Shown here in pieces: positions 1-37,232 of a stretch of DNA of 64,000 nt. Position 1 is the stretch's first letter. The number at the start of each line of letters is the position of its first letter. A program made the translations under genes and the position numbers. Origin of the DNA: an uncultured Chitinophagales bacterium (GTDB taxonomy: Bacteria > Bacteroidota > Ignavibacteria > UBA10030 > UBA6906); assembly GCA_964444145.1 (NCBI GenBank), contig CAYUFU010000005.1, positions 1,667 through 65,666 on the forward strand, in the 5' to 3' direction. The notes beneath the pieces were generated by a model that saw nothing but the letters and a program-made list of their open reading frames with translations, had not been told where the DNA came from and searched no databases.

Positions 1-954
1 TGCTGCATGCGCCGGGCACGCAACATGGCAGCGTCCACACTTCGTGCACGCGTCGAGATCGAGCAGTTCCTTCCACGTAAAGTCGGTGATTGTGCGGTAG
101 CCGGGCTTCGGCGCGCCTTCCGCCGGGCGCGGCAATCGTCGCGCAGCCATTGGGTCTTTGAAGATAAGATTCGCCAAGTCCGTGAAGATGTGCATCGCTT
201 TGGAATAGGGAAGGTACGCGAGGAACACCATCACGAGAACGGCATGAACCCACCACGACGCGAGATGCAACGGCACAACGTGAGTATGCAATCCTATTCC
301 ATTCGTCGCCTCGGCAAGCATCCACCCGACGGGTGACCATCGCTCGAACTCCGGCATGTGCTCGGCAATGCGAAACCCTTCGATGAGATAGCCTGTGACG
401 CCAATGAGAAAGAGTAATGTGAGAAACATTTTGTCGTCGAGCGCGTACCCTGTGCGGTTGTACTTTCCGTTTTGGGCATCTGCGCGATGGTAATCGAGTT
501 GCGGTAAATGGAACGATGAGCGCCGCACCATCATCATCGCGAGCCCGATGAGGAACAGCACACCAAAAATATCCAGTACGACGGAGAACCAAAGGTAAAA
601 CGTCCCTTGCAGTATCTTCATGCCGAAGAAGCGGAGGATGTCGTGATCAATTGCGACGAGCACCGTTCCGATGAAGAGCACCACGAATCCCCAGAAGATG
701 AGGAAATGTGAAAGCCCCGCATACGTGTCGCGATGGAAGATGGTTCGGTTCTGCGCGATCGCCACTAGTGCACGGCGGATTCGTTCTCCGATATTGTTGA
801 GACGATTGACAGCGCGGCCGCGGCGATATTTTTTGTAGCGACGATAGAAGCCGTACAGAAACGCGAGAGAAGTAATTCCCGCAACGGCATAGAATGTCCA
901 CTGCATCCAATCGGGAAAGTGAGCGAAAATTTCGCGGGTCGGTGTATCGAACAT
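1..954 (-). CDS. Membrane-anchored Fe-S oxidoreductase, EMO/HdrD-like; 5' part only, gene runs off the window start
   Basis: Absent from the ORF track because there is no stop inside the window. My translation of the minus strand from ATG 954..952 gives MFDTPTREIFAHFPDWMQWTFYAVAGITSLAFLYGF... It has several hydrophobic helices with conserved His (b-haem membrane-domain style), then DACTKCGRCHVACP (4Fe-4S motif) at the window edge. The junction TAGGAGACATCATG with the upstream gene supplies an SD. Confidence 0.75.
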   Translation of the reverse strand, partial: MFDTPTREIFAHFPDWMQWTFYAVAGITSLAFLYGFYRRYKKYRRGRAVNRLNNIGERIRRALVAIAQNRTIFHRDTYAGLSHFLIFWGFVVLFIGTVLVAIDHDILRFFGMKILQGTFYLWFSVVLDIFGVLFLIGLAMMMVRRSSFHLPQLDYHRADAQNGKYNRTGYALDDKMFLTLLFLIGVTGYLIEGFRIAEHMPEFERWSPVGWMLAEATNGIGLHTHVVPLHLASWWVHAVLVMVFLAYLPYSKAMHIFTDLANLIFKDPMAARRLPRPAEGAPKPGYRTITDFTWKELLDLDACTKCGRCHVACPAHAA

Positions 955-3161: not shown

Positions 3162-4271
3162 TTACTCCATTACTCCATTGCCCACGACTCCATCAACCAA
3201 TCGTAACTGTTTTCTTATTACCACCAGGTCGTCATCGTTGGGAAGAACAGGATAATCGCGAAACTCCTCGCCTGGACGATATGATCCATAAGGGCGATTG
3301 CATGTCATGCTTCCTTCTCGGTCGGGGCAGCCGTTGGTCATGAACGGCACGCCGCTTTCAATGGCTCTATCAATTAGATCGTCTGCGGCAGCGAGCCGCT
3401 CGATATTTCCCTGCTCGTCGAACTCGATTGCGTCAGCAGAGAGACTTCGCTCTTCGATAAGATGTTTCGCAAGCTGAATGCGCCGCCAGCGATGCATCGG
3501 CGCGCGCGGCACATGCTGCATGGATGTTCCCGGCTCCGGATTGAACGAAAAGAGATAACAGGCAATCTGCTCAGACTTCAGCTGATAAAACATATTCACA
3601 AGCTCGCGGTCTGTTTCCCCAAGCCCGACGATGATGTGACAATTCACCTTCATCGGACCGAAGATGCGGCGCGCTGCACGAACAATGTGCCAGTGATGGT
3701 CCCAATCGTGCGGACCGCGCGCCTTCTTGCCGCGCGTGTTGGAAAAAACCTCCTCCGATGCTGCGTCCAAGCCAACGCCGACGATGTCTGCGCCGGCTTC
3801 CTGAATCTTGTACAAGCGCTCCTCGTTCAGCGTTGTCGCACTGACGAGCGCGGAGATTGGGACACTCGGCGCGGCGCGGCGAACGCGGTTCGTCATCTCA
3901 ATCAGGTCGTCATACGCTCGATGGTCTTGCACCTGCGCGATGCACACGCGTCCGACGCCGCTCGTAGCTTCCTTCTCCGCGATCTTCTCCGCGACAAGGT
4001 CGGTAGGGAAGAGGGGCCATGAGACGCGAATGAACGTGTTGTCTTCCGGAGTGCCGGGTCGCTCACGCGCGAGTCCGCAATACGTGCAGTTAGCGAAGCA
4101 GCCTTCGGGATAATTCTGCAACAAATTGATGCAGCCGCAACGGCAATCGCGCATGATGCGTCCGGGCTTCAGCCGCAGTTCAATCGCCGCCGCCATGCTG
4201 ATGCGAACATAGTCCGGGCTGATTTGATATTGCTCGGATTGGAGGTTTGAAGGAATGTGTACTTTTACCAT
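3162..4271 (-). CDS. Radical SAM enzyme, LipS1/LipS2-type lipoyl synthase component (candidate)
   Basis: The track ORF 3162..4298 starts at TTG; I prefer ATG 4271 (MVKVHIPSNL). Radical SAM triad CFANCTYCGL plus upstream CRCGC cysteines. Embedded between ligase genes, as in sLpl-LipS1-LipS2 clusters. Confidence 0.7.
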   Translation of the reverse strand: MVKVHIPSNLQSEQYQISPDYVRISMAAAIELRLKPGRIMRDCRCGCINLLQNYPEGCFANCTYCGLARERPGTPEDNTFIRVSWPLFPTDLVAEKIAEKEATSGVGRVCIAQVQDHRAYDDLIEMTNRVRRAAPSVPISALVSATTLNEERLYKIQEAGADIVGVGLDAASEEVFSNTRGKKARGPHDWDHHWHIVRAARRIFGPMKVNCHIIVGLGETDRELVNMFYQLKSEQIACYLFSFNPEPGTSMQHVPRAPMHRWRRIQLAKHLIEERSLSADAIEFDEQGNIERLAAADDLIDRAIESGVPFMTNGCPDREGSMTCNRPYGSYRPGEEFRDYPVLPNDDDLVVIRKQLRLVDGVVGNGVME

Positions 4272-4359
4272 AACGTGCTTGATACTGTAGAGCAACACTC
4301 CAGTGTCGCTCCTGTTGGCGCATATGAGCGATTCTGGAGAATCGCTCTACAAGAAATTC

Positions 4360-5355
4360 CTACCACATCACCCCGCAGCACGCGTTGACAAAGTGCGGCT
4401 CCAACGAATGCCCGCGTGCAAACTCCACGATTCCCTCCGCCGGATAGGCGATGCCATTCAACCCGGCTTCAATTGCGAGACGGTCTATCTCATACTTCAT
4501 CACGCCCAACGGACGAGCGCAGCCGAGCATGACAGGTGTTCGCGGCAGCGCTTTGCGCGTCGTTTCAAAGAATTTTCCAATTTCATCGAGCGGCGGCGGA
4601 GCGACATTCGCCATTGGCGTGTTGCTCAACGGCATGAGAATGACAAGCACGAGCAGCTTCGGCGGATGACGCTCGACCATTTCAAGCGCGCGCCATTCTC
4701 CTACCATCCGACCAAAGTGCAAGCCTAAAATGATATGGGGTACTGTGGGCACATTGTATCGGTGCAAGCATGCAAGAGCCTCTTCATAATCGTCGGGCGT
4801 TATGCCGCCGAGATGGTACACCTCTCGAATTGTTGCCTCGTGACCGATGAGGTCAATCATCGCGCCGTCAATACCGACCTCACCCAACGCAGCGCAGGTC
4901 TCTTCGTCCGGCAGGCCGGTGTGCACGCGAATCGTAAGCTGAAGCTCGCGGCGAACGCGCATCAAATCTGGAATGTGTTTCAGCAGCGGCACCCGCCCCT
5001 TGTTGTCGCAGCCGCCGGAGATGAGCACACCGCGAGCTCCCCGTTCTGCCAGCCGTTCGCACAACTGATACAAAGAAGCCCCTGCGTATGGCAGCGACGT
5101 CATGCCTTTGAGCACACTCATGTTGCAGTGTTCGCAGCTCAACGCGCAGGCTGTTCCTGTGATGCTGATGGAAACGAACTCCGCCGCATTTTGCTCGACA
5201 TACGCTGAAGTTTTGTACCTCTTCAATCCCGGCGCATGAAACGTGATGCTGTCGTCAAAATGCTCGCGGCGTATCGCCATGCATTCAGGGTCAACCATGA
5301 TGCGCGTGGATTCATCGCCAGAAGCAGGATGTGAGAGCAGCTCAAGCATACGCAC
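4360..5355 (-). CDS. Radical SAM enzyme, LipS1/LipS2-type lipoyl synthase component (candidate)
   Basis: 331-aa ORF with triad CALSCEHCN and a GGCDNKG motif. Overlaps the upstream ligase gene by 14 nt. Confidence 0.7.
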   Translation of the reverse strand: MRMLELLSHPASGDESTRIMVDPECMAIRREHFDDSITFHAPGLKRYKTSAYVEQNAAEFVSISITGTACALSCEHCNMSVLKGMTSLPYAGASLYQLCERLAERGARGVLISGGCDNKGRVPLLKHIPDLMRVRRELQLTIRVHTGLPDEETCAALGEVGIDGAMIDLIGHEATIREVYHLGGITPDDYEEALACLHRYNVPTVPHIILGLHFGRMVGEWRALEMVERHPPKLLVLVILMPLSNTPMANVAPPPLDEIGKFFETTRKALPRTPVMLGCARPLGVMKYEIDRLAIEAGLNGIAYPAEGIVEFARGHSLEPHFVNACCGVMW

Positions 5356-6460
5356 GTTCGGGATGAGGGTTCACAAAACAACCGTACGGCTGATTTCTCT
5401 CGAGACGTGCAAGGGCGTCTTTTGTCGCGCAATGAATCACTGTTAGCATTCGCTCAACCGGAATCATTCTCAGCTCGTCTTCCCATCGAGCGAACACGTT
5501 CAGCACTGTTGCAGTAAGTGCATCAGGTTCACTGGTGTGCCAGCGTAAACTTCGCTCGAGGTCGGCGATGGCGTCATCGGACGTGAAAAAATCGCCGTTG
5601 ATATGAACTGACTTTAGCATTCGTCCTGCGAGAGCGACTCTAACGTCAAGCAATCCTCCGCTGGTTTTCATGTGCGCAACGCCCGCCAAATCGCCGATTG
5701 CCGTCGTCTGAAATATCCATTCGGGCGTGAGATATTTTTCCTTTTCGAGTACCGCAATCGCAGCACGCTCATCGGAGGAAAATTCGCCGCGCGTCAGTTC
5801 GACGTTGAACGCAGCCGCGTAGCCTTCGGACACTTTGTTGCGAACATCGTTCATCGCAATGGCGCCGCCGATTTCGCACCGCACTGTTGACGTGCGCGCT
5901 GCGACGGTTCGAATTACTTTGTCTGAGATTTTTTCCAGCGGGGTTGAAAGCACGTGCAACATCAGCTCGACATCCAAATCAACGAGCAGCGAAGCATGAA
6001 ACAACAACCCGCCACTTGGCGCGCGATGGAGTCCGAGTCCTGCAATCTTCCGTCCGTTCACCTCGAGGTCGTTCTTGCGACGAAACGCCGCCTCGATGCC
6101 GAGCGCATGCAGCGCCGTGAGCAAGCCTTCGGCGAATTGCGTCATGAGCGCGCGAGCATTCCCGTACACGTTCTCCGCGCGGCTCGCAATCATCAACGCA
6201 ACGCCCAGTTGGTCCGCACCCATGATGATCGCGCCGCCGCCCGTGGGACGGCGATTGATTGGGATGTTGTGCTCGCGGCAGAAGTCAATATGAATCTCGT
6301 TCTCCGCTCGCTGAAATCGTCCAACTAACGCGCAGTGAGAGCGATAGGTGTAGAGTCGCAACGTCGGGGGCGACTCGCCCGAGCCAGCGCGGCGCGCGAG
6401 CGTCTCGTCGGCGGCGAGACCGAAGGAGGCGGAGACGTTGTTGTCAGTTATGAGGCGCAT
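5342..6460 (-). CDS. Lipoate-protein ligase A-like protein (sLpl-type), paralog 2
   Basis: 372-aa ORF with motifs RRPTGGGAIIMG and VNGRKIAGLG (LplA-type catalytic Lys context). Confidence 0.8.
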   Translation of the reverse strand: MRLITDNNVSASFGLAADETLARRAGSGESPPTLRLYTYRSHCALVGRFQRAENEIHIDFCREHNIPINRRPTGGGAIIMGADQLGVALMIASRAENVYGNARALMTQFAEGLLTALHALGIEAAFRRKNDLEVNGRKIAGLGLHRAPSGGLLFHASLLVDLDVELMLHVLSTPLEKISDKVIRTVAARTSTVRCEIGGAIAMNDVRNKVSEGYAAAFNVELTRGEFSSDERAAIAVLEKEKYLTPEWIFQTTAIGDLAGVAHMKTSGGLLDVRVALAGRMLKSVHINGDFFTSDDAIADLERSLRWHTSEPDALTATVLNVFARWEDELRMIPVERMLTVIHCATKDALARLERNQPYGCFVNPHPERAYA

Positions 6461-6538: not shown

Positions 6539-7141
6539 TCAAAACATATCCCACTTCTCACCATAACCCTTGATTGGATACTTCCTCCAAATCTCCACCA
6601 ACCAATCGCGCCCCTTCTCGCGCAAATACCAATTGAAACTCGACCATTCCCATTCGTCCAACCGTTTCACATAGCCGTGCTTCACAGGGTTCCAGTGGAT
6701 GTAATTGAGCGTCGAATAGTAGTGCGCTTCGCCGCGAATCATCCGGTCGGCGAATTGGTACCAGACCTTACGCTTTCCTGTCAAGCCATCTTCCAGATTC
6801 CACCCCCGTGAAGTTGTGCCATGCAAGCTGTTGAAAAGCTCCGACAGCTTTGGAAACGCTGGAACGAACGCAAGTACATGATAGTGATTCTCCAAAAATA
6901 CCCATCCGTCAATTTCGATTTCAGCATCGCGAAGTTTTTCCAGAACGAGCGTTTGAAATTCGGTGCGACGCTCAGGTGTTGCCATGATGTGTTTGTGCTC
7001 GAAGTTCGCGGCGGTGAGGAAATAGTACGTCTTCTCGTTGAATGGATGCGGAGGCGCGTGGAGTGGATAGCCTCTTGACTTTCTTAATCGCACAACTGCT
7101 TTGCGCTGTTCTGGCGTCATGCGACGGTATTCGTAGGGCAT
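6539..7141 (-). CDS. REP-associated tyrosine transposase (RAYT; IS200/IS605 TnpA-like HUH/Y1)
   Basis: 200-aa ORF with HUH motif in ENHYHVL and Tyr motif YIHWNPVKHGYV, typical of RAYT/COG1943-like proteins. Confidence 0.85.
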   Translation of the reverse strand: MPYEYRRMTPEQRKAVVRLRKSRGYPLHAPPHPFNEKTYYFLTAANFEHKHIMATPERRTEFQTLVLEKLRDAEIEIDGWVFLENHYHVLAFVPAFPKLSELFNSLHGTTSRGWNLEDGLTGKRKVWYQFADRMIRGEAHYYSTLNYIHWNPVKHGYVKRLDEWEWSSFNWYLREKGRDWLVEIWRKYPIKGYGEKWDMF

Positions 7142-7183: not shown

Positions 7184-7627
7184 TTAAACCCATCCTTGCA
7201 ACCGATACCGCTGAATTTCACTTTCGACCCAACGTGGAATCGCGCTCCCAGAAACCAACGCCGCAGATTCTTGCTTCCAATCTGTCGCGTCGAACGATGC
7301 AATCCAACCGTCGTTGTAGGGATCACGGTTGACGAGTGTTGGATCGTGCACAACGTTCACATTGCATCCGATGAGAATTCCGCTTACAGGTGCGATGATG
7401 TCTCCGGTCATCTTCGCCGCTTCGAATGTACCAAATGCTTCACCGCGCCCGACGGGCGTTCCGACTTCTTTGAGCGTTACATACACAAGGTCGCCAAGCG
7501 CCTGCAAGCCAAGTACATCAATGCCAACAATGATTCGACCTGTCGCATCATCTGCCCGCGCCCACATGTGGTTGACGGAGTCATAATAGCGATCGTGGGG
7601 AATGTAAATTGCGGTTGAAGAGGACAT
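7184..7627 (-). CDS. lbpA: GcvH-like lipoate-binding protein LbpA (copy 1)
   Basis: 147-aa ORF with lipoyl-lysine context FEAAKMTGDIIAPVSG (compare GcvH VESVKAASDIYAPVSG). Confidence 0.85.
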   Translation of the reverse strand: MSSSTAIYIPHDRYYDSVNHMWARADDATGRIIVGIDVLGLQALGDLVYVTLKEVGTPVGRGEAFGTFEAAKMTGDIIAPVSGILIGCNVNVVHDPTLVNRDPYNDGWIASFDATDWKQESAALVSGSAIPRWVESEIQRYRLQGWV

Positions 7628-7701: not shown

Positions 7702-8670
7702 TCATGCCTTTGCCTTCTCAATAAGCAGCGGCACGATGTCGAACAAATCTCCTGCAACGCCATAGTGCGCGTAATCGAAAATCGGAGCGTTTACATCGGA
7801 GTTGATTGCAACAATCGTCTCGGCGTCTTTCATGCCTTCGATATGTTCAGGCGCGCCACTGATGCCGAGTGCGAGATAGAACCTCGGTTTCACTTTCACC
7901 CCGGACTTTCCGACTTGCCGCGTCTTCGGCAGCCACTTGCTGTCCACGATAGGACGTGAACAGGAGAGCGCGCCGCCGAGCGCGTCGGCAAGTTCTTGCA
8001 TCTGCGGAATGTTGTCGGCGCTCTGAATGCCGCGCCCGACACTAACGAGGATTTCTTTTGTGGTAATGTCCACACCGCCGCCTTCCGGCTCGATGAGTTT
8101 CTTGAAGCGAACCTTCGGCGTGTTCAACGCGGCGGGCGGCACGAAGTCTTCGACCGTCGGCGAGCCGCTCGCGCGTCCTTTGTCCGACGGCGAGGCACCA
8201 GCCAACATGCAGACGATTACGCCGTCGGCGGTGAACTGCGATTCAACGTTGAGCTTGCCGCCGTACAACTGGCTCGTCGCTACCACCGAGCCATCTTCCA
8301 CTTTCGCGTCGAGCGCGTATGCGACCAACGGCAGATTCGCTTTCACCGAAAGCGATGCCGCAAGGTCCATGCCCATGGAAGAATTGGCAATGAGCGTAAC
8401 GGCAGGTGCGTGTGCCTTGACGACTTCCGTCAAAGCAATGGTGTACGTTTCGGGATTGAAGTTGTCCAAACTTCCATGCTCGACGGCGATGATCTTGTCG
8501 GCGCACCCCATCTCTGCAGTAAGATTCTTCACACCGTTGCCGAGCAGTACACCAACGAGTTTGCCGCTTTTCGCATTTGCAAGCTCGCGACCTTTGCCAA
8601 GCAGTTCGAACGTTACATCGGCAAGCTTCCCTTTCAGGTGCTCGGCGACCACGAATACATCATTGCTCAT
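7702..8670 (-). CDS. etfA: Electron transfer flavoprotein alpha subunit
   Basis: 322-aa ORF with C-terminal FAD-domain motif YLALGISGAPEHIEGM. Overlaps etfB by 4 nt. Confidence 0.9.
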   Translation of the reverse strand: MSNDVFVVAEHLKGKLADVTFELLGKGRELANAKSGKLVGVLLGNGVKNLTAEMGCADKIIAVEHGSLDNFNPETYTIALTEVVKAHAPAVTLIANSSMGMDLAASLSVKANLPLVAYALDAKVEDGSVVATSQLYGGKLNVESQFTADGVIVCMLAGASPSDKGRASGSPTVEDFVPPAALNTPKVRFKKLIEPEGGGVDITTKEILVSVGRGIQSADNIPQMQELADALGGALSCSRPIVDSKWLPKTRQVGKSGVKVKPRFYLALGISGAPEHIEGMKDAETIVAINSDVNAPIFDYAHYGVAGDLFDIVPLLIEKAKA

Positions 8671-9434
8671 CGTTTCACTCCCTTTGCCTTCATCAAGTCC
8701 ATAATTCTTGCTGCAATATCCTCAGCACTGCCATCAATCATTTGTGCCTGCGTTCCTTTCTCGGGTTTCATAATGCGGCGTACGCGCGAGCCAACTTCAA
8801 CCGCAATGGCGCCTGCCTCCGCATCATCCAACGTTGCTTCCTTCTGTATCTGACGAACGCGGCTCACAGCTACATAACGTGGAGTCTCTCGTGCAGCTTG
8901 AATGCCCAACACCGCTGGTAAATCCACCTCCAGTTCAGCCATCATACCGCCCTGGTATTCCTTGTGCACAATCGCTTTGCGCCCGTCCACATGCACGCCC
9001 GTCACGACGCTGATATGCGGCACGTCAAGATAGCTGGCCAACAGAACTCCCATCTGACCGTCGCGATCATCTACCGCTTGCACACCAGTGAGAATCAAAT
9101 CGTGCGGCAAGTTCTTCGCGACATTTGCAATCGCCTTCGCAGCGACATGCGACGCAACTCCGCCCGAAAGATCGCCCATCACTTTCACTCCTTTGTCCGC
9201 GCCTTTCGCTATTGCCGTGAAAAGAAGTTTGTCGGTTTCATCGCCATCGAGCGCGAGGACCGTCACCGTTCCGCCTAACGCGGCTTTCAATTGCAGCGCT
9301 TCTTCCAACGCGTGATCGTCGAACTCATTGATTTTGTATTTCACCGAGTCGCGATTGATGTCGGTTCCCTCTTCGTTGATCTCTAATTCTTCAACGAGGT
9401 CAGGAACTTGTTTGATGGGCACGAGGATGTTCAT
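8667..9434 (-). CDS. etfB: Electron transfer flavoprotein beta subunit
   Basis: 255-aa ORF starting MNILVPIKQVPD, with the typical EtfB layout. Translationally coupled to etfA. Confidence 0.9.
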   Translation of the reverse strand: MNILVPIKQVPDLVEELEINEEGTDINRDSVKYKINEFDDHALEEALQLKAALGGTVTVLALDGDETDKLLFTAIAKGADKGVKVMGDLSGGVASHVAAKAIANVAKNLPHDLILTGVQAVDDRDGQMGVLLASYLDVPHISVVTGVHVDGRKAIVHKEYQGGMMAELEVDLPAVLGIQAARETPRYVAVSRVRQIQKEATLDDAEAGAIAVEVGSRVRRIMKPEKGTQAQMIDGSAEDIAARIMDLMKAKGVKR

Positions 9435-9497
9435 GGACTCTTCTTCTTAGTGTACGTTTGAGATTTCACGGATATATTCTGGATGGATTGACGGAGT

Positions 9498-9516
9498 AGT
9501 GAGGCAATGCCTCACT
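9498..9516. other. Hairpin spanning the stop codon of the HdrD-like gene
   Basis: AGTGAGGC-AAT-GCCTCACT (8-bp stem). No U-tract. Confidence 0.35.
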
Positions 9517-10798
9517 GTTTAGCCATTGCTTCATCCAACAACTCTACAATGTCGCGCACAAGGAGTCTTCCTTCGTTGCCTGTGGACTTCACAGCGTCCT
9601 CGAAGCGCGAAACTTCGTATGGGCAACAAATCGCCAGCACTTCGGCACCTGTTTCCGTTGCCTCGCGAACGCGTCGCTCGGACAGGCGCTCGCTGACATG
9701 GTCTGCCATGAAACCATCCAACCACATGCCGCCTCCACCGCCGCCGCAGCAGTAGCCGTTCTCCTTGCAGCGCCACATCTCGATAAACTCGATGCCGGGT
9801 ATGGCGTGCAAGAGTTTGCGCGGCGATTCATACTCGCCGTTGTGTCGTCCTAAGTAACACGGGTCGTGGAAGGTGACCTTGTGCTTCAGTTCGTTTTTCA
9901 GCATCGGCTGAAGCTGATTCAGGCGCGACGCGAGGAACGTCGTGTAATGCTCGACCTCAAACTGGCCGCCTAACTTCGGATATTCTTTTCGGAATGCGTT
10001 GAGCGCGTGCGGGTCGGTAACAACAATCTTTTTGAATTTGTATTTCTTCAGCATCTTGATGTTGTGCGCCGCTAGCTCTTCAAACAAGCCCGGCTCGCCG
10101 GCGAGTCGCTGCGAGTCGCCGTCGCATTTTTCTTCGATGCCGAGAATGCCGAAATCAACGCCCAGCGCGGTGAAAACCCGCGCAAGCGCCTTCGATGCAT
10201 CAATGCCTCGCTTATGATAGCTCGGATAGTCGCTCACGAACCACAGCACATCCACAGGCTTCTTAGTTTGCGCCATGATCGGCACCGGAACGCCGGCGGT
10301 TTTCGTCCAATCGGCGCGCTTCTTCGGCGACTCGCCGAGCGGGTTGCCATACTCCGCACAGTTCTGAAACATCTGCTGCAGCTCTTTCGGTACTAAGCCC
10401 CTCAACACCGCTTGCTCGCGCACGGCGGGCATGACTTTGACCAAGTTCACTTCCTTTGGACAAACACGCAGACAGTTCATGCACGTCGTGCATTTCCAAA
10501 GCTCCGGGCTTTCAAACAAATCCATGCCCGTTTGCACTTGACGGAAAAGCTTACGCGGTCCGTAACTGCCGACGATATCCACTGGACACACAGGCACGCA
10601 TTGCGCGCATTGATAGCACCATCCAAACGACTCGGCATTGTCGAGCGCAGTGATTTTTTCCATCAGCTCCGGAGTATAATCCCACAAGACTCGTTGCTCG
10701 AACATCCGGTTCCAGTGGCCCGAAATATCCAAGCCCTCTTGAACGACATGCTCCTTTTCAATGATGCGCTCTTTGTCAACTGTAAGCAGTGAACCCAT
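9512..10798 (-). CDS. HdrD-like fused ferredoxin + 2xCCG protein (sHdrB3-type)
   Basis: The track ORF extends to 10945, but that part lies inside the sHdrH-like gene. I use ATG 10798 (MGSLLTVDKE), which overlaps the upstream stop as TGATG. Motifs: CYQCAQCVPVCP, CTTCMNCLRVCP, KCDGD, HDPCYLGRH, YCCGGGGG, CCPYE. Confidence 0.8.
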   Translation of the reverse strand: MGSLLTVDKERIIEKEHVVQEGLDISGHWNRMFEQRVLWDYTPELMEKITALDNAESFGWCYQCAQCVPVCPVDIVGSYGPRKLFRQVQTGMDLFESPELWKCTTCMNCLRVCPKEVNLVKVMPAVREQAVLRGLVPKELQQMFQNCAEYGNPLGESPKKRADWTKTAGVPVPIMAQTKKPVDVLWFVSDYPSYHKRGIDASKALARVFTALGVDFGILGIEEKCDGDSQRLAGEPGLFEELAAHNIKMLKKYKFKKIVVTDPHALNAFRKEYPKLGGQFEVEHYTTFLASRLNQLQPMLKNELKHKVTFHDPCYLGRHNGEYESPRKLLHAIPGIEFIEMWRCKENGYCCGGGGGGMWLDGFMADHVSERLSERRVREATETGAEVLAICCPYEVSRFEDAVKSTGNEGRLLVRDIVELLDEAMAKQ

Positions 10799-11577
10799 CA
10801 GGGACACTCCGTCATTATTCCGTTTTCGATTCGATACACACCCAACAGTCTCCGCGAGAACTCCGGTAGACCCGGCATGACCTTGTTGAATTCCTGCGTC
10901 ATCCGCATGCGTAAGACCGTGTACACGTACACGACATAGACACAACTCAAGAACACATCGGTCCCGAACAGGTTCTTGCTGATGGTCTGGAATCCCGTAG
11001 CCTCACCTACCTGGTGAACAAACGCGACCGCCTCACCGACACGCAAATAAATGTCTCCGGCGGTTTTGCCGCTGAGGTCGAATGCCTCAACAGTTACCAA
11101 TGGCAGCGCTCCTGTTCGTGTTTTCGGGTCCCACATCCAGCGTGTCCAGAGCCAATAGCGTTCGGGGTCAGTGAAGTGAAGTATCTCGCTGGCGATGTCG
11201 CGACGGATGTTGTCTTCGAGAGGTTCGAGCTTATCCACAAATGTTTGGAACCGCGATTTTGTCGGGTCGCTACCGTAGAGCAGTTCCCACGTCCACGCGC
11301 GCAAGTCATCCGGTCGAAATTGCTTCATGATTGCGTCCGTCTTTCGCCGCGCAGAAAAAATTCGCCGCAGCAACGAAAAGTAATCCGCCGATGCAAGAGA
11401 GGGGAGCGCCTCACGACTGAGTTTTTTTTGAAACCATAGCGCCTTCAATTCCACTTCTGCGCAGATTTTTTGCAGCTCCTCTGCTGCAACTTTCTCCAGC
11501 GCCTGGCGCATGAATTCTTTTGCGGTTTCCGTGTCAACGACTTGGCTCACCCTGAAACCCGATTTGATTTCACGCAA
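10798..11577 (-). CDS. shdrH: Conserved hypothetical in the sHdrH position
   Basis: 259-aa ORF (TTG start in the track; the start is uncertain). No recognisable motif; assigned only by its position between the HdrA-like gene and the next Hdr subunit. Confidence 0.55.
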   Translation of the reverse strand: MREIKSGFRVSQVVDTETAKEFMRQALEKVAAEELQKICAEVELKALWFQKKLSREALPSLASADYFSLLRRIFSARRKTDAIMKQFRPDDLRAWTWELLYGSDPTKSRFQTFVDKLEPLEDNIRRDIASEILHFTDPERYWLWTRWMWDPKTRTGALPLVTVEAFDLSGKTAGDIYLRVGEAVAFVHQVGEATGFQTISKNLFGTDVFLSCVYVVYVYTVLRMRMTQEFNKVMPGLPEFSRRLLGVYRIENGIMTECP

Positions 11578-11761
11578 AGTCGCAAAGCCGCTAAGTTTGT
11601 TTTGAGAAAGTTGAGGAAAGAAGATTTACCTTGTCGGTGGAAGCGCATGAACAGTTCGGGAATCCTCTTCCTCATGTTTTGTTTCTTTTTCGTTGCGTCT
11701 TGCCTGCCCGCCTCACTGTGCTATGATGGCAGGCGGGGCGCCTTTGCGTGAGAATCTCGCG

Positions 11762-12838
11762 CTATGCCGCCGCGTGAACGCCATGCTTGCGCACGATGGC
11801 AATCGCCTTCATCGCCGCCGCCGCCGCGGATGAAACCGAATCTTCGAGGTCGGCGGGACCTGTAGCAGCGCCGCATGCAAACACGCCGGGCACACTCGTC
11901 GTCACGGTATCGAGTGCGCCGCCGACGGCTTCGATGAACTGGTATTTGTTAAGCTGCAACCCGAAAACGCTCGCCATCGCGCGCGTCCCCGCACTCGGCT
12001 CCATCCCAACCGAGAGCACAACGATATCCATTGGCACTTCCATCGGTCGTCCCATCGTCGTGTCTTCGCCGCGGATCAATAAGCGGTCGCCTTTCTTCAA
12101 TACTTCGGTAACAATGCCTTTAACGTAATTGACCTTGTGCTTCTCTTGCGCGGGCCAGTAGATTTGATTTTCCCAGTAACCGTACATGCGCATGTCAATG
12201 TAGAAGATGAAGACCTTGCAGTTAGGGAGGAGCTGGCGAACTTCGATTGCCTCTTTGGAGGCGACGCCGCAGCAGACCTTCGAGCAATACTCGTTGCCGA
12301 TTTGTCTGTCGCGCGAACCGACGCACTGAATGAAGCACAAGCGCTCCGGCGGTTTGCCGTTCGATGGACGCACGACGTTGTGTGCGCGCAGCATTTTCTC
12401 TAAGTCCACCAGTGTGATGACGTCGTCGAACTCATAATAGCCGTATTGCTGCGTTTCACGTCCCGGATCGAAATGTTGGAATCCCGTTGCGATGATGACA
12501 GCGCCCGCTTTCACTTTTTCCTGTCCCATGCCGTTCTTAACGGTGATCTCGAAATTGCCGACGGAGCCGCTTGCCGCTGTCACGGTGGAATTCAGTCGAA
12601 TGCCAACCAGTGGATTGTTGTCAACGCGCGCAACCATTTCGGCAATCGCGCTGTCTGCGCTGCGGAAATCTGGCGTGAGCGCGGCGTAACCCGCTTCGTC
12701 CGGCGTGCCGCCGAGGCGCGCGCGTTTTTCGATGAGTATCGCCGTATAGCCAAGCTCAGCGACGCTGCGCGCTGCTTCCAAGCCCGCAGGTCCGCCGCCA
12801 ATAATCATGATAGGCAAGACTGATTCAGGCATTAACAT
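11762..12838 (-). CDS. shdrA: sHdrA-like FAD/Fe-S flavoprotein
   Basis: 358-aa ORF with IIGGGPAGLEAA dinucleotide fold and Cys cluster CVGSRD...CSKVCC. Overlaps the HdrB-like gene by 14 nt. Confidence 0.85.
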   Translation of the reverse strand: MLMPESVLPIMIIGGGPAGLEAARSVAELGYTAILIEKRARLGGTPDEAGYAALTPDFRSADSAIAEMVARVDNNPLVGIRLNSTVTAASGSVGNFEITVKNGMGQEKVKAGAVIIATGFQHFDPGRETQQYGYYEFDDVITLVDLEKMLRAHNVVRPSNGKPPERLCFIQCVGSRDRQIGNEYCSKVCCGVASKEAIEVRQLLPNCKVFIFYIDMRMYGYWENQIYWPAQEKHKVNYVKGIVTEVLKKGDRLLIRGEDTTMGRPMEVPMDIVVLSVGMEPSAGTRAMASVFGLQLNKYQFIEAVGGALDTVTTSVPGVFACGAATGPADLEDSVSSAAAAAMKAIAIVRKHGVHAAA

Positions 12839-14018
12839 CCTCCCACGTCAGGTATTGTTTTTCACCGCTCTTCAACCGTTCGGTCGCTGCTTCAAATTCC
12901 TTCCAAGCTTTCTCGTGATCGATTCCGACTTTCTCCAAGAACGCCGTGTTGTCCGTACTGTGCCAGTGGAGTTGCAGCACTTTGTAGGGATGTGCGCCCA
13001 TGGCAAGCGCCGCAATCTGCGAATCGGACATGACGGGAACACCGACATTGCGTCCGTGCGCCTTCGCGGCAAACTGACTTTGGTCGAGCGTTGTCACGCA
13101 ACCCGTGTCGTGCGTGACCGTGACATCGGGATTGGCTTCTTGTTTCATCACTTCGATTTTCCGCATCGTTGCAAACGAGCGGGAGAAATCGCGCGACACA
13201 AGAATGTGGCGGAACCCGAAGCCGCAGCAATCGAACCATGTGGAATAATCCTTCACGTCAATACCCAGGGCTTTCAGTGTTCCGGTAATAATTGCAGACC
13301 GCTGCGCGCCGTAAATTTCCGGATCATACACTGCATCTTCTGCAATGAGCTTATGATAGTGACATGCAGGATGGACCGTTGCGCGTATCATGCTCATGTC
13401 GCGCACCTGATGCGCTGCAATCCTGTCGCGCACGGCGTGCACCCATTCGCTGTAGTGAACAATCTCTTCAGGTATGACGAATTTCTTTCCAAGCCGCGCC
13501 AGAATGTCGCGCACTTGCTTGCGCAGCGCGGCGCTGTGCAAGAGCTGCTGCCGCGTTTCTTTGTAATGTCCGAAGCTCGTGCCGCAATGAATGATGGGGA
13601 AGTATCCCGTTTCAGCCGCCGCCGCAAAGTTGCGCATGGCAACCGCCGCTTGTGCCGCCGCATTCGAGGTTGCTGAGGCATAGTAATTCCACGCCGTGCA
13701 CGACGTCTGGTCGGTCGGGTCAATGTAATCGAGCCCAAGTTGGCGGTTTATCCAAAAGATAGAAGTCGAGTAGCCGGGGATGTGCCCGCACTGACCGCAG
13801 CTCTTGTGATGCCAGGTTTTCTGCACCGGAATCTTTTTCTTCCGCCCGTACTTTGTCTCGACTTCGATGTACGGCTCGGGCACGCGCTGAACCTCCCACT
13901 CACCCTCTTTTTCTAACTCGAAGAGGTGCTCATGAAAATCGTCGGTGGGTGCGTTCTTGACATCGCGAACAAACTCTCGGTCCTTCGCCTGCTTCACTAA
14001 CGCTTCCTGTGGTATCAT
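12825..14018 (-). CDS. shdrB1: sHdrB1-like CCG-domain subunit
   Basis: 397-aa ORF with CCG motif in FDCCGFGFRH and a further Cys-rich region. Confidence 0.8.
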   Translation of the reverse strand: MIPQEALVKQAKDREFVRDVKNAPTDDFHEHLFELEKEGEWEVQRVPEPYIEVETKYGRKKKIPVQKTWHHKSCGQCGHIPGYSTSIFWINRQLGLDYIDPTDQTSCTAWNYYASATSNAAAQAAVAMRNFAAAAETGYFPIIHCGTSFGHYKETRQQLLHSAALRKQVRDILARLGKKFVIPEEIVHYSEWVHAVRDRIAAHQVRDMSMIRATVHPACHYHKLIAEDAVYDPEIYGAQRSAIITGTLKALGIDVKDYSTWFDCCGFGFRHILVSRDFSRSFATMRKIEVMKQEANPDVTVTHDTGCVTTLDQSQFAAKAHGRNVGVPVMSDSQIAALAMGAHPYKVLQLHWHSTDNTAFLEKVGIDHEKAWKEFEAATERLKSGEKQYLTWEDVNA

Positions 14019-14072
14019 GTGGTTTGCTCCTGACTAGTTCTTTCCCAACCTTCTGTGTGCAGAGAGTTCTCC

Positions 14073-14777
14073 TCACTCAAAGCTGACAGCATAGCCCGCT
14101 TCCTCGAGTCGTTCTTCCATCACATCCTGTAAAATCATGAACAACCCCTCGTCCACTTCTTTGATCATATCCATCACGCCAGTCATGTGCCAAATCAAAT
14201 ACAGTTCAATGATGGTCTTCTCGTCCACCTGCCATCCTGTTTCTGTGGTGTGCAATGTTTCGGGCGGCAGTGCGCGGCGCCAAACATCGAGGTTATCCGA
14301 AATCGCTTTCACGTGGGGTCCCCAATCCGGGAACGCGTTCGGCTGCAGCATATCGGGGGAGACTTGCGTGCCGGTTGACATGATCTTGTAGACGACGCGC
14401 CCGTAGCCTTCGAGCGCCTCCTGTGCGGTTGCCAAGCCGTTCTTCACAGCGACTTCGCGCATGATCGTGATGATGCCGCCGGGCGAATTCTTGCGCGGGC
14501 AGCGGTCGCACGAAAAACATTGCGAGCAGTCCCAGATGCTGTCGTTCATCAATGTGTACACGAGGTCCACATCCTCGCGGGCAACGGCTTGCGCAATCTT
14601 GCGCGGACTGAAATCATAGAACCGCGCCGAGGGGCACGCGGCTACACAAATGCCGCATTCATAACAGCCATACAGATACTCCTCATAGCGCAGGTCTGCC
14701 TTGACCTGCTCGAAGAGCCGTTCTTTCTCTTCGTAGGCGACGCTCGCGTATTTTCTCCCTGTCAGGTCGAGAGCCAC
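14073..14777 (-). CDS. shdrC1: sHdrC1-like 2x[4Fe-4S] subunit
   Basis: 234-aa ORF (GTG start) with CYECGICVAACP and CSQCFSCDRCP. Confidence 0.8.
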   Translation of the reverse strand: MALDLTGRKYASVAYEEKERLFEQVKADLRYEEYLYGCYECGICVAACPSARFYDFSPRKIAQAVAREDVDLVYTLMNDSIWDCSQCFSCDRCPRKNSPGGIITIMREVAVKNGLATAQEALEGYGRVVYKIMSTGTQVSPDMLQPNAFPDWGPHVKAISDNLDVWRRALPPETLHTTETGWQVDEKTIIELYLIWHMTGVMDMIKEVDEGLFMILQDVMEERLEEAGYAVSFE

Positions 14778-14927: not shown

Positions 14928-15398
14928 CTACGCCTCAAATCCCTCCACGTGAGCGCATGCCTTGAGATTTTCTTTTTCAATCTTTTGTCGGTATGCTTCC
15001 ACTGCGGCGTCGCCTGTTGACATCGCCGCAAGATCTGCTTGAAGATTCGATGGCTGCATTTTTACAATCCACCCTGCGTTGTAGGGACTTTGATTGATGA
15101 GCTTCGCGTTCTGTCCGACCTTCGCATTGACCTCGATAATCTCTCCTGAGACGGGGGATTTTACGGGACCAACCCATTTGCCGCTTTCGACCGTCGCAAT
15201 TGGTTTTCCTTTTTCGCGCTTCGTGCCGACGCCTTTTGCTTTTGCGTGGAGCAATGGTCCGGCGAGATTTTGCGCGACATCGGTCATGCCTACGAGCACC
15301 GTTCCATCGTCATTGAGTTTTATCCAGGTGTGGTCCTCAACCGCGTAGTAGAGGTCTTTGAGAATGACACAACCACGGACTTCGTCTTTTTCGGGCAT
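14928..15398 (-). CDS. lbpA: GcvH-like lipoate-binding protein LbpA (copy 2)
   Basis: 156-aa ORF with lipoyl-lysine context VESGKWVGPVKSPVSGEI. GGAG SD upstream. Confidence 0.85.
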   Translation of the reverse strand: MPEKDEVRGCVILKDLYYAVEDHTWIKLNDDGTVLVGMTDVAQNLAGPLLHAKAKGVGTKREKGKPIATVESGKWVGPVKSPVSGEIIEVNAKVGQNAKLINQSPYNAGWIVKMQPSNLQADLAAMSTGDAAVEAYRQKIEKENLKACAHVEGFEA

Positions 15399-15500
15399 TG
15401 CTTTTTCTCCTGCTCACTGGTATTAGGCAGCGATTAGCACACCACCGCGTTCTGCACCGCTGTACAATTTGCACCCGCCATTGGTATCCCTTACACTACG

Positions 15501-15878
15501 TCAAAAGTACATCACATGATCCGATTCGAGCGCCAAATCTATGATGCTCGTTGCGCCCAGAATCTCAACGCCGGGAATCAAGTCCTCAGACTGCATGTTC
15601 CACAATGCCATGCTCTGCTGGCAGACGCGCAGCTTCACGCCGGACTCCATCGCCTGCTCAAGCATCGTTTTGAGTGTTACGTCGCTTGTCGGGTCGAGCT
15701 GGACTTTTTCCGCTGCGCCTTGCTTCAATTGATTGGTTCCATCCATCGTGAACCAAACCATCACCTCCATCTCCATTGCCGCCGCCGCCATCGCATAGAA
15801 AAGGGGAGAGTAGGTTCGGCGCGGCGTCTCGACCCCATGGGTTTGTATCACCAAAATTTTTTTCCCTTCGGCATCCAT
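15501..15878 (-). CDS. DsrE/DsrF-family sulfur-carrier-like protein (small)
   Basis: 125-aa ORF with DsrE-like layout (KILVIQTHG...) and a candidate active Cys in LRVCQQS. Confidence 0.7.
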   Translation of the reverse strand: MDAEGKKILVIQTHGVETPRRTYSPLFYAMAAAAMEMEVMVWFTMDGTNQLKQGAAEKVQLDPTSDVTLKTMLEQAMESGVKLRVCQQSMALWNMQSEDLIPGVEILGATSIIDLALESDHVMYF

Positions 15879-15977
15879 CGGGTTATTCTCTGTTGTCGTT
15901 TCCCATTCGATTACTGTTCTCTACCCTCTCGGCGTTCTTTGCAGTCAATTCATTTTCCTGTTTTCGGACAAGTTGCT

Positions 15978-16265
15978 CTAAGGATTGATTTCACACGGCT
16001 TGTTCGGGTCAGCGAGAACGATGAGATACTTCTTGTTCCATTCCCACCCGTCGTGTTCGGACATAAATTCATGCAGCTTGTCTTTTTCGGGATGATGCGT
16101 ATGAAGCTTGAGTGCAAGAGGAATGTTCCGTTCGTCCGTTGCGAGTATCTCCATCAAGAGCCATTCACCGGCGAGATCGTGATAAAGCTGGCTCAACTCA
16201 CTGAGCGCAAGTTCCTTCCCCGTCCAATCATCATTCGGCGCTGGAACCTGTAGCGTCCGTCTCAC
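15978..16265 (-). CDS. Hypothetical 95-aa protein, translationally coupled to the DsrE3-like gene
   Basis: The track ORF 15978..16331 overlaps the dsrE3-like gene by 70 nt. An in-frame GTG at 16265 overlaps the dsrE3-like stop as GTGA. No motif recognised. Confidence 0.5.
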   Translation of the reverse strand: MRRTLQVPAPNDDWTGKELALSELSQLYHDLAGEWLLMEILATDERNIPLALKLHTHHPEKDKLHEFMSEHDGWEWNKKYLIVLADPNKPCEINP

Positions 16266-16780
16266 ACAAACAAACTCACGTTCGCGTTTGCCGCGTATTC
16301 GAGGAACGTCGCCGCTCCGCCGATCTCGCACTCCGGAATAAAATCTTCTCTGGTGAAGCCGAATACATCCATCGTCATCTGGCAGCCAATCATGCGGACG
16401 TCCATTTCAACACATGCACTGCGCAAGTCCCCAACGGTCGCGACGCCTTTCTTTTTGAATGTCTGCTTCATCAGATTCGTGGCGACGTTTTCAAAGCCGG
16501 GTATGTTGCCCATTAACAAGTTTGGAATGTGCCAATTGATTTTCTGGAATCCCTCTGGTCCGAACGGCATCTTCATCGGCATCGCCGGGTTACCGACGGG
16601 CGTTACGGTTGCATGAAGGTCCTTCTTCAGCAACGGCAAGCCATAGAACGTGAAAAAGATTGCAACTTCCCAATCCATCGAGGCTGCCGCGCTCGCGAGA
16701 ATGAAGGGAGGGTACGCCCAATCCAGCGTTCCCTTGCTGGCAATAAGTGCCAGACGATGTTTTCCATTACTCTGTGCCAT
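16262..16780 (-). CDS. DsrE3-type (COG2210-like) sulfur-carrier protein
   Basis: 172-aa ORF with conserved Cys context MIGCQMTMDVFG and a GGAG SD. Confidence 0.75.
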   Translation of the reverse strand: MAQSNGKHRLALIASKGTLDWAYPPFILASAAASMDWEVAIFFTFYGLPLLKKDLHATVTPVGNPAMPMKMPFGPEGFQKINWHIPNLLMGNIPGFENVATNLMKQTFKKKGVATVGDLRSACVEMDVRMIGCQMTMDVFGFTREDFIPECEIGGAATFLEYAANANVSLFV

Positions 16781-16867
16781 AAGGATTCTCCTTCAATGCA
16801 ATGAAAAGAATTCTCAACCGAGAACGGAATAGTTGCCGCTTGAAGAGAGCCTCGCTCGATGCGTTTG

Positions 16868-17110
16868 TTAGTGAGTTACCTTGATGAGGAAGCGGAATTT
16901 TCCGTTGTCTTCTTTCTGCGCATGAAGCAACTCATGCTGCGTTTGCCGCGCCCATGCTTGCATGTCAGGAATGGACCCAGGGTCGGTTGCAACCATCTCG
17001 AGGACTTCTCCCACGTGCATTTCTTTGATGACCTTCTTGGTCTTGACAACAGGCATGGGACACAGTAAGCCGCTGCAATCGAGAGTTTTGTTAGGTTTCG
17101 TTTCGTTCAT
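16868..17110 (-). CDS. tusA: TusA-family sulfur carrier
   Basis: 80-aa ORF with canonical LDCSGLLCPMPVVKTKK (CPxP motif). Its ATG overlaps the upstream stop as ATGA. Confidence 0.9.
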   Translation of the reverse strand: MNETKPNKTLDCSGLLCPMPVVKTKKVIKEMHVGEVLEMVATDPGSIPDMQAWARQTQHELLHAQKEDNGKFRFLIKVTH

Positions 17111-17394
17111 GGTCGTGACTCCTGAACGGATTTGCGGATGTAGAAAGTGAATTCGTTCTCGCGTTCCCTCACCTCAATCAACTCGTGGCCCGTGCTCCGA
17201 CACCACGCTGGGAAATCGGAGACCGCGTTGGGGTCGGTGGAGATCAATTCCAATACCTCATACGCTCGAAGTGCGTTCATAGCGCGGTGCAGTTCAACTA
17301 CTTGCATGGGACCGAAGGTCTCACGACAATCAAGTTGCTTGCTTATCACAAGATGATTGTTGAACACGATTGGAAGGTCTGAACCTGGCTTCAA
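17107..17394 (-). CDS. TusA-like protein lacking the CPxP cysteine
   Basis: 95-aa ORF (TTG in the track; a GTG 27 nt downstream is an alternative start). It aligns by eye to TusA, but the motif reads LDCRETFGPMQVVELHR, so Cys becomes Gly and the second Pro becomes Gln. Confidence 0.7.
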   Translation of the reverse strand: MKPGSDLPIVFNNHLVISKQLDCRETFGPMQVVELHRAMNALRAYEVLELISTDPNAVSDFPAWCRSTGHELIEVRERENEFTFYIRKSVQESRP

Positions 17395-18622: not shown

Positions 18623-18629
18623 CGGCTCG

Positions 18630-19052
18630 CTACTCGCGCCCTGTCGCCTCGCCGTTTTCCAGCGTGACGAAATCATCCTGCACGTAGGCGCGCAGAATGT
18701 CGCCGCGCGAAACGACTCCCACCAACTTGTCGTTGCGAACCACGGGCAGGCGAATGAACCGACGCTCGCGCATAAGACGGATTGCTTCGTCCACCTCGGC
18801 GTCTTCCTCGATGCACACAGGATCCTTGCTCGTGATGTCTTCGGCGACGGCGGAACAAAAGCCGTACTCATCGCGATGCTGCAGCACTTTGAGGATGTCG
18901 AACTCGGTCACGATGCCGATGACGCGCTGTTGCTCATCAACCACAGGCAAGCCGCTGAAAAAACCCATAAGCATTTTCTTGGCGAGGTCCTGACAGTTGA
19001 CATTTTTCGTCGCCGCGACAACACGGCGGCTCATCACCTCACCGACTTTCAT
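18630..19052 (-). CDS. CBS-domain pair protein
   Basis: 140-aa ORF with two CBS-like halves (VVDEQQRVIGIVTEFDILK and VVRNDKLVGVVSRGDILR). Overlaps the cbbS end by 14 nt. Confidence 0.8.
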   Translation of the reverse strand: MKVGEVMSRRVVAATKNVNCQDLAKKMLMGFFSGLPVVDEQQRVIGIVTEFDILKVLQHRDEYGFCSAVAEDITSKDPVCIEEDAEVDEAIRLMRERRFIRLPVVRNDKLVGVVSRGDILRAYVQDDFVTLENGEATGRE

Positions 19053-37093: not shown

Positions 37094-37200
37094 CACCAAA
37101 CCCTGATGCCCGCAAAGCGGGACGAAGGGTATGGAAATGGATAATTGGTTTGATGGATGATCGGAATTCAGGAATCCAACAATCCAATAATCCATTTATC
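37094..37200 (+). repeat. Intercistronic two-hairpin repeat, copy B
   Basis: AACCCTGatgCCCGCAAAGCGGGACGAA...GAATCCAaCAATCCAATAATCCAT. GC hairpin at 37109..37121. AT-rich arms at 37137..37156 and 37176..37195 (20 nt, 3 mismatches). Confidence 0.7.
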
Positions 37201-37232
37201 CATTTCACGTACGTTTTGTTCTGGGAAGGTCT

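Follow-up and report, generated by a model that had tools for sequence, protein, structure and literature searches.

A dedicated electron-transferring flavoprotein and the membrane protein EMO as the probable electron exit of a type II sHdr cluster in an uncultured freshwater bacterium

The stretch of DNA analyzed here (the window: 64,000 nucleotides, G000:C5:1667-65666, from a 68-kb contig of an uncultured bacterium) carries shdr genes, which encode a sulfur-oxidizing Hdr-like (sHdr) complex, together with etfB and etfA, the genes of an electron-transferring flavoprotein (ETF), and emo, the gene of the membrane protein EMO. This region is probably the half of a type II sHdr-LbpA sulfur-oxidation cluster through which electrons leave, with the ETF and EMO passing electrons to menaquinone. 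The identities and domain content of the genes, the type of the ETF, the completed EMO, the strict co-occurrence of the genes and the presence of separate housekeeping ETF and EMO copies were observed directly. From the sequences we infer which way the electrons flow, that the ETF docks on sHdrB3 and that a quinone is the acceptor. In type II organisms, the energy gained from oxidizing sulfur depends on the route that its electrons take into the respiratory chain.

Two kinds of shdr cluster have been distinguished. Type II has the arrangement shdrC1B1AHB3-etfAB-emo and is recognized by etfAB lying within the syntenic cluster; it has been reported in 130 assemblies from 13 phyla, its carriers are known as sulfur oxidizers, and the proposal that EtfAB and EMO form the electron route to menaquinone is credited to Kümpel 2024 (Tanabe 2024, PMC11094781). 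The Sulfobacillus arrangement was drawn in 2014 with a long membrane 'HdrC' carrying CCG domains beside etfAB (Justice 2014, PMC4378227), and the arrangement has been listed as Group III (Cao 2018). In the window, genes were assigned by Pfam and NCBIfam profile searches and named according to the published cluster scheme (Tanabe 2024). The shdrC1, B1, A, and H genes are syntenic on one strand (10798-14777) in the order seen in related loci, etfAB lies in the cluster, and emo, transcribed from that strand too, follows after 6.7 kb in which every gene is co-directional. An earlier note on this DNA had proposed a route from sHdr via ETF and EMO to quinone; the proposal is supported and matches the one in print for type II systems, and it is not new. 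The window is clearly a new example of a type II sHdr system in an uncultured freshwater bacterium, with nothing new in principle. The genes that carry the argument are the following.

1..954, minus strand: EMO, N-terminal 318 aa; the full gene encodes 694 aa, with 1131 nt more beyond the window start
7702..8670, minus strand: EtfA, FAD-binding alpha subunit, 322 aa (Pfam ETF 1e-28, ETF_alpha 1.7e-31)
8667..9434, minus strand: EtfB, beta subunit, 255 aa (Pfam ETF 7.9e-26)
9512..10798, minus strand: sHdrB3, 428 aa (two Pfam CCG stretches, 7.8e-23)
10798..11577, minus strand: sHdrH, conserved hypothetical protein of shdr clusters, assigned by position
11762-12838, minus strand: sHdrA, short 358-aa form (Pfam Pyr_redox_2/CCG set for sHdrA-B1-C1, synteny, sequence)
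12825-14018, minus strand: sHdrB1 (Pfam Pyr_redox_2/CCG set for sHdrA-B1-C1, synteny, sequence)
14073-14777, minus strand: sHdrC1 (synteny, sequence)

The ETF and its iron-sulfur partners

The earlier note had described etfB and etfA as overlapping by 4 nt directly after a 428-aa protein, and the coordinates bear this out: the two genes share 8667..8670 (an ATGA overlap), and the gap between shdrB3 and etfB is 77 nt. EtfA has no N-terminal ferredoxin domain, and its best solved match is the W3A1 ETF (1o94_D, 1.1e-52), with the bifurcating CarE close behind (5.9e-52). EtfB is closest to the AMP-containing W3A1 protein (1o94_C, 6.4e-43), whereas bifurcating ETFs reach 1.1e-27 at best. Gly123 of A. 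fermentans EtfB is invariant in bifurcating ETFs, where it leaves room for a second flavin, and the residue is bulkier in AMP-binding ETFs (2025 JBC paper). Pairwise alignments place Asp123 of the window EtfB, within TGVQAVDDRDGQMG, at this position. Among the reference proteins the residue is Gly in two bifurcating ETFs, Asp in the human protein, Asn in that of Paracoccus, and Gln in W3A1; across 57 cluster-linked EtfBs it is Asp in 52, Glu in 5, and Gly in none. In a small EtfB tree, the cluster-linked proteins formed one long-branched clade (98/100) with W3A1 as the nearest reference, apart from the two bifurcating ETFs, the human and Paracoccus proteins, and the other EtfB of the genome. 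The comparison of EtfB and EtfA that the earlier note had called for thus yields a non-bifurcating ETF, by Asp123 as well as by tree placement. With the typing based on the Gly123 criterion and the small tree, we conclude that the cluster ETF is of the canonical AMP type and predict that it acts as a one-flavin carrier.

The start codon of the neighboring sHdrB3 gene is the ATG at 10796..10798, which shares one nucleotide with the stop codon of the preceding gene. The longest open reading frame (ORF) reaches a TTG at 10945; yet 80 relatives align from residues 1-29 on, mostly 1-6, which supports the start of the 428-aa form. The protein consists of an HdrC-like 2x[4Fe-4S] part, with ferredoxin motifs CYQCAQCVPVCP and CTTCMNCLRVCP, fused to an HdrB-like CCG part. 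The earlier note had read it as a fusion of two ferredoxin motifs with two CCG domains; the motifs and both CCG stretches are present, but only the second CCG motif keeps its cysteine set, with Glu at the end. In the first motif, Cys occupies one of the four examined positions in the window protein and two in most relatives. The second lacks only its last cysteine ligand, in whose place Glu stands (residue 395), a replacement common to 78/78 sHdrB3 proteins. The published description of sHdrB3 is that of a C2-B2 fusion binding one non-cubane cluster only (Tanabe 2024, PMC11094781), and the window protein, with its fused HdrC2-like and HdrB2-like parts and a single predicted non-cubane cluster site, fits it.

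sHdrB3 also resembles the cytoplasmic head of EMO. The two are 38% identical over 398 aa, and among solved proteins sHdrB3 best matches EMO 9ojn_A, in its cytoplasmic part (7.9e-56), with HdrC reaching only 1.3e-17. The altered cysteine pattern is common to sHdrB3 and the sHdr-linked EMO, the CxxC cysteines of the first motif being lost from both, and an extra Cys upstream of the CC pair is found in 78/78 sHdrB3 proteins and in 34/46 sHdr-linked EMOs.

The gene at 1..954 is cut by the window start. The earlier note had assigned it a membrane domain followed by a CxxCxxCxxxCP motif, and both were confirmed: hydrophobic segments lie at about 77-111, 114-149, 176-197, and 226-258, with a weaker one at about 17-37 (five in the first 260 residues), and the window part ends in CTKCGRCHVACP. 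The rest of the gene, read from the same contig, brings the protein to 694 aa (L002:536-2620 = G000:C5:536-2620). The full protein carries two [4Fe-4S] motifs of the CxxCxxCxxxCP type, CTKCGRCHVACP and CTTCMACVEACP, and then a CCG domain (1.5e-16), and the CCG/HdrD part on which the earlier note had made its EMO assignment depend is therefore present. Its match to the solved M. smegmatis EMO/EtfD (9ojn_A, 9.6e-80) spans the membrane part as well as the cytoplasmic one. In the Syntrophus EMO, three histidines ligate heme bP and heme bD1; the heme-ligand positions in sHdr-linked EMOs are H83 (46/46), H255 (46/46), and H237 (42/46). E8 (37/46) and H104 (32/46) are candidate counterparts of the quinone-site residues E22 and H109 of S. 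aciditrophicus EMO.

The cluster sites of the sHdr-linked EMOs differ from those of housekeeping EMOs. In 46/46 of them the first CCG motif has lost its four cysteines, in whose place stand Asp, Asn (43/46), Asp, and Ser/Thr, whereas the second EMO of this genome (EMO2) and the M. smegmatis EMO have four cysteines there (VGC, EKC, CPHC). In the second CCG motif the last Cys is replaced by Asp (residue 663) in 45/46. The first-motif position C42/T539 has been tied to the distal cluster FeS4 (Boll and Einsle preprint), and since the first-motif cysteines are gone, sHdr-linked EMOs should have no FeS4. Typical EMOs have two terminal clusters, FeS3 and a variable distal FeS4; here the FeS3-type motif is kept with Asp as its last residue, and the FeS4 cysteines are replaced, which is why we class these proteins as an EMO-like subfamily and not as typical EMOs. 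With Asp or Glu at the last position, the non-cubane cluster of EMO and sHdrB3 may be a variant ligated by a carboxylate. In the solved EMO-ETF complex, the ETF docks through EtfB and the FAD lies 12-13 Å from both terminal clusters, so that a single terminal cluster could suffice in the sHdr-linked EMO.

A tree of HdrD modules showed three well-supported clades, namely housekeeping EMOs together with MsEMO, sHdrB3 proteins, and sHdr-type EMOs. The tree is unrooted because the only CCG proteins of the genome, EMO1, EMO2, sHdrB3, and sHdrB1, offer no suitable outgroup. Cryo-EM structures have been reported for two housekeeping EMOs (9OJN in the PDB and that of S. aciditrophicus in a 2026 preprint), and the sulfur-linked EMO subfamily is the natural next comparison with these solved proteins. 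The details of its cysteine pattern are a modest addition, for which an overlap with Kümpel 2024 is possible.

Gene neighborhood and distribution

The minus strand carries every gene from position 1 to about 22 kb of the window. In the direction of transcription, the cluster begins with two TusA-fold and two DsrE-family proteins and LbpA1, continues with sHdrC1, sHdrB1, sHdrA, sHdrH, sHdrB3, etfB, and etfA, and then passes through LbpA2, a REP-associated tyrosine transposase (RAYT), an LplA-like ligase, LipS1, LipS2, a second ligase, and a radical SAM protein to emo, which runs off the window. The 6.7 kb between the end of etfA (7702) and the start of emo (954) is thus filled by the co-directional lbpA2, the RAYT gene, and lipoate-assembly genes. 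Outside the genes listed above, the features of the cluster are these.

963-2099, minus strand: radical SAM protein without assignment, 378 aa; SPASM-type matches are weak
2084-3106, minus strand: LplA-like ligase (synteny in relatives)
3162-4298, minus strand: LipS2 (NCBIfam LipS2 1.1e-61; syntenic in relatives)
4360-5355, minus strand: LipS1 (NCBIfam LipS1 6.5e-68; syntenic in relatives)
5342-6460, minus strand: sLplA-like ligase (synteny in relatives)
6539..7141, minus strand: RAYT (NCBIfam REP_Tyr_transpos 6.1e-24, above cut-off)
7184..7627, minus strand: LbpA2, lipoate-binding GcvH-like protein (Pfam GCV_H 1.1e-26)
14928-15398, minus strand: LbpA1 (sequence, synteny)
15501-15878, minus strand: DsrE-type protein (sequence, synteny)
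16262-16780, minus strand: DsrE3-type protein (sequence, synteny)
16868-17110, minus strand: TusA (sequence, synteny)
17107-17394, minus strand: TusA-like protein (sequence, synteny)

Synteny was assessed in 80 related loci. They come from many phyla, and the titles of their records mention KSB1, Planctomycetota, Bacteroidota, Calditrichota, Chloroflexota, and Myxococcota-type bacteria. The earlier note had asked whether relatives carry this ETF beside acyl-CoA dehydrogenases; it sits in shdr clusters instead, with etfBA present in 55/80 loci and the remaining 25 cut short by the end of a contig. Of the 47 loci whose flank is long enough, 39 have emo immediately after etfA and 6 have it at another place in the locus. 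The last two of the 47 are the nearest relatives (L003 and L004), which have the layout of the window and end before emo would be reached; RAYT is absent at the matching place in both. The position of sHdrH, for which a Pfam and NCBIfam search gave no match, is kept in 78/80 loci, which are those reaching that far upstream, and the block from LbpA1 to TusA (14928..17394) is syntenic in relatives at 60-94% identity.

Several further observations concern the same neighborhood. The radical SAM gene at 963-2099 recurs in related shdr loci at 45-76% identity, often beside emo or LipS2. Most of the loci L005-L081 have, between DsrE3 and DsrE, a gene whose product is 26-38% identical to the window ligase at 2084-3106; at that place the window, L003, and L004 have just a 383-nt gap. 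About 100 nt past the emo stop lies a 91-aa ORF with two CxxC pairs (L002:157-432, minus strand), with a faint zinc-finger match below the Pfam cut-off. A LipT-like label for the ORF at 17606-18871 was withdrawn.

The genome has a second set of the two electron carriers. A second etfBA pair lies on contig C44 among unrelated genes, its EtfB being 32% identical to the cluster EtfB, and EMO2 (661 aa, with two full CCG motifs, 34% identical to the cluster EMO, or 36% in the genome-search alignment) lies on contig C8 among housekeeping genes; a search of the genome for ETF-QO found none. The C44-type pair is the widespread one in related genomes, and the housekeeping EMO is present in 20/21 of them. 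EtfA at 50% identity or more was found in only 3 of 21 related genomes (G000, G017, and G020), where its neighbors always include an sHdr-type EMO and a B3-like gene. The cluster EtfB shares with beta-oxidation ETFs the AMP-type features (position 123 and the closest solved relative), and AMP is predicted as its ligand; the cluster EtfA, confined to these three genomes, is not a core gene as that of a beta-oxidation ETF would be. The earlier note had allowed for a grouping with housekeeping fatty-acid ETFs, and the separate clades and the 32% identity of the two EtfBs answer this: the cluster ETF is not the housekeeping ETF.

sHdrB3, sHdr-type EMO, and sHdr-type ETF were absent from all eleven same-genus genomes searched, which makes the shdr cluster an accessory island in this lineage. 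Close copies of the cluster (84-89%) occur in records titled Ca. Coneutiohabitans thermophilus (the nearest, 89%) and 'Acidobacteria' metagenome-assembled genome. The patchy distribution suggests horizontal transfer of the whole shdr cluster.

In G017 and G020, which belong to the order of the window's genome, the same trio stands in a five-gene operon, etfB-etfA-emo-B3-like-hdrA (L118:7847-14582, G017:C11; L117:8482-15514, G020:C4), without shdrB1/C1, lbpA, or sulfur-transferase genes. In the G020 operon, HdrA is full-length (673 aa, with a C-terminal 2x[4Fe-4S] domain), EtfB has Asp123, and EMO shows the matching losses of first-motif cysteines. These operons may represent a different Hdr-ETF-quinone system, and their gene content suggests that the trio of B3, ETF, and EMO is a module able to serve different HdrA-type enzymes. 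We tentatively extend this idea, as a possibility that we do not favor, to a single portable exit module in which an AMP-type ETF would shuttle between two look-alike single-cluster heads, sHdrB3 being a recruited EMO head and not simply an sHdrC2-sHdrB2 fusion; the sister relation of sHdrB3 and sHdr-type EMO that it implies is based on their shared altered residues only. If true, the module attaches either to a short sHdrA, in sulfur oxidation, or to a full-length HdrA, as in the operon of G017 and G020.

The electron route and its alternatives

By analogy with other type II clusters, that of the window would oxidize sulfane sulfur to sulfite. Sulfane sulfur would come via TusA, the DsrE proteins, and lipoylated LbpA to be oxidized at sHdrB1, and the electrons would then pass via the [4Fe-4S] clusters of sHdrC1 and via sHdrA to sHdrB3, which is predicted to have the build of an EMO cytoplasmic head with a single non-cubane-type cluster site. 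There the dedicated canonical ETF, with a redox-active FAD in EtfA and AMP in EtfB, would load one electron at a time, and it would unload at EMO in the membrane, whose single cluster site matches that of sHdrB3. EMO in turn would relay the electrons through two cubane clusters and heme b to menaquinone, and the menaquinol would be oxidized by a bc-type complex and a heme-copper oxidase. That EMO takes electrons from the ETF and reduces menaquinone is suggested by genetic linkage and by the menaquinone-synthesis genes of the genome. These include three MqnA/MqnD-family genes, and a search for MenB gave none reaching the cut-off; together, the two results point to menaquinone synthesis by the futalosine route.

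The respiratory genes lie at the far end of the window.

53293-54138, plus strand: Rieske protein (Pfam)
54155-54946, plus strand: cytochrome b, N-terminal part (Pfam)
54950-55834, plus strand: cytochrome b, C-terminal part (Pfam)
55862-58471, plus strand: multiheme cytochrome c (Pfam)
59415-61229, plus strand: COX1 (Pfam)
61233-61823, plus strand: COX3 (Pfam)
62680-63630, plus strand: COX2 (Pfam)

The earlier note had led the electrons from quinone to this bc complex and oxidase (53-64 kb). The genes are indeed present, but this last leg is putative, being a matter of gene content. Between the two regions lie a molybdopterin oxidoreductase of the Psr/Phs/Ttr/DMSO-reductase kind (35438-40127, plus strand), with an FeS subunit apparently fused to a membrane part, and a SulP-family anion transporter (24069-25775, minus strand); these may be further sulfur-compound enzymes or serve a sulfite/sulfate step. 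Between translation genes and the bc complex lies BshC, of bacillithiol biosynthesis (51308-53008, minus strand; Pfam 6e-106), and bacillithiol could be the low-molecular-weight thiol of the organism.

Several points weigh against the proposed route. The searched literature yielded no experimental or biochemical work on any type II sHdr system, and no RNA runs containing the sequence were found, the five runs that hold it all being DNA metagenomes. The docking of the ETF on sHdrB3 is deduced from the similarity of sHdrB3 to EMO alone. The altered ligand set, with no first-motif Cys and with Asp or Glu for the last Cys, could change the potential of the cluster or even its presence, and the heme histidines are kept equally in the one-heme M. 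smegmatis EMO, so that the number of hemes cannot be read from them. Finally, 6.7 kb with a transposase gene lie between etfA and emo in the window, an arrangement that most relatives do not share.

The sequences fit alternatives to different degrees. Electrons could be bifurcated or confurcated at the flavin of sHdrA, with ETF and EMO as the high-potential branch and a second acceptor, such as lipoyl-LbpA and then NAD+, or a ferredoxin, taking the low-potential electron. The HdrA of methanogens, of which sHdrA is a homologue, is a bifurcating flavoprotein, the cluster has two LbpA genes, and the G020 operon pairs ETF, EMO, and B3 with a full-length HdrA bearing the C-terminal clusters. However, the sHdrA of the window is the short form without ferredoxin-type domains, the genes from shdrC1 to emo include none for a ferredoxin or an NAD-linked partner, and the ETF itself is non-bifurcating, and we regard this alternative as unlikely.

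Reverse flow, in which EMO and the ETF would draw on menaquinol with the help of the membrane potential and feed sHdrB3, perhaps to re-reduce the lipoate of LbpA or as an electron supply for the radical SAM lipoyl synthases, is improbable. The Syntrophus EMO does run against the potential gradient on proton-motive force, and in the window emo comes straight after the lipoate-assembly and radical SAM genes, 8 nt behind the gene at 963-2099. In the relatives, however, emo directly follows etfA and not the lipoate genes (39/47). The organisms that carry type II clusters are known sulfur oxidizers, and the RuBisCO, phosphoribulokinase, and oxidase genes of the window fit an autotroph that needs the electrons of sulfur in its quinone pool.

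An ETF that itself bifurcates or confurcates, as a two-FAD, NADH-linked protein, had been raised as a possibility in the earlier note and is not supported. EtfA matches CarE nearly as well as it does W3A1 EtfA, but EtfA lacks a ferredoxin domain, EtfB is far closer to the W3A1 AMP-type protein and branches apart from the bifurcating ETFs, and because Asp123 stands where Gly is needed, with Asp or Glu in 57/57 cluster-linked EtfBs, bifurcation at the ETF is very unlikely. That these are housekeeping fatty-acid copies near the shdr genes by chance is scarcely credible, for although the best-known role of EMO and ETF is in the beta-oxidation of bacteria that contain menaquinone, the genome has a separate ETF and a full-cysteine EMO elsewhere, the latter shared with nearly all related genomes, and the cluster-linked ETF and EMO travel with the shdr genes across many phyla in clades of their own.

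The favored route from sHdrB3 through the ETF to EMO leads to three predictions: the ETF holds FAD and AMP and does not use NADH; EMO and sHdrB3 have one terminal cluster each, with Asp or Glu among its ligands; and the ETF docks on both sHdrB3 and EMO.

Comparison with known systems

The window cluster is most readily set beside the type II sHdr systems of Sulfobacillus, Chloroflexota, Actinobacteriota, and others. It shares with them the gene set and order, the fused sHdrB3, and etfBA adjoining shdrB3, as well as the TusA and DsrE3 sulfur transferases, the two LbpAs, and the sLpl/LipS1/LipS2 lipoate genes. It differs in its host, which appears Zhuqueibacterota-like (FCB group), and in the place of emo, which has moved 6.7 kb from etfA, a layout common only to the two nearest relatives. 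With the methanogen HdrABC and HdrDE complexes it shares domain types, seen in sHdrA, in sHdrC1 and sHdrB1, and in sHdrB3, and EMO has the architecture of HdrDE. In contrast to the methanogen proteins, sHdrA is short and without ferredoxin domains, and sHdrB3 and EMO each have one non-cubane site, which makes a two-cluster active site of the CoM-S-S-CoB type impossible there.

Like the EMO/EtfD proteins of Syntrophus aciditrophicus and Mycobacterium (9OJN), the window EMO has a five-helix NarI-like heme b domain with the same three histidines, followed by an HdrC-like two-cubane domain and then an HdrB-like domain, and it goes together with an EtfAB of the AMP type. Unlike these proteins, it lacks the four first-CCG cysteines, has Asp for the last Cys, and falls into a separate clade, and its presumed donor is a sulfur-oxidizing Hdr-like complex and not acyl-CoA dehydrogenases.

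The closest solved ETF for both subunits is that of W3A1 (Methylophilus methylotrophus, PDB 1O94), whose partner is trimethylamine dehydrogenase. Like the cluster ETF, it is of the canonical FAD and AMP type, the Gly123 position being taken by a bulky or polar residue, and it likewise receives electrons from an iron-sulfur center of its partner. The two differ in their partner proteins, which are unrelated, and in that the cluster-linked EtfBs fall into a clade of their own on a long branch.

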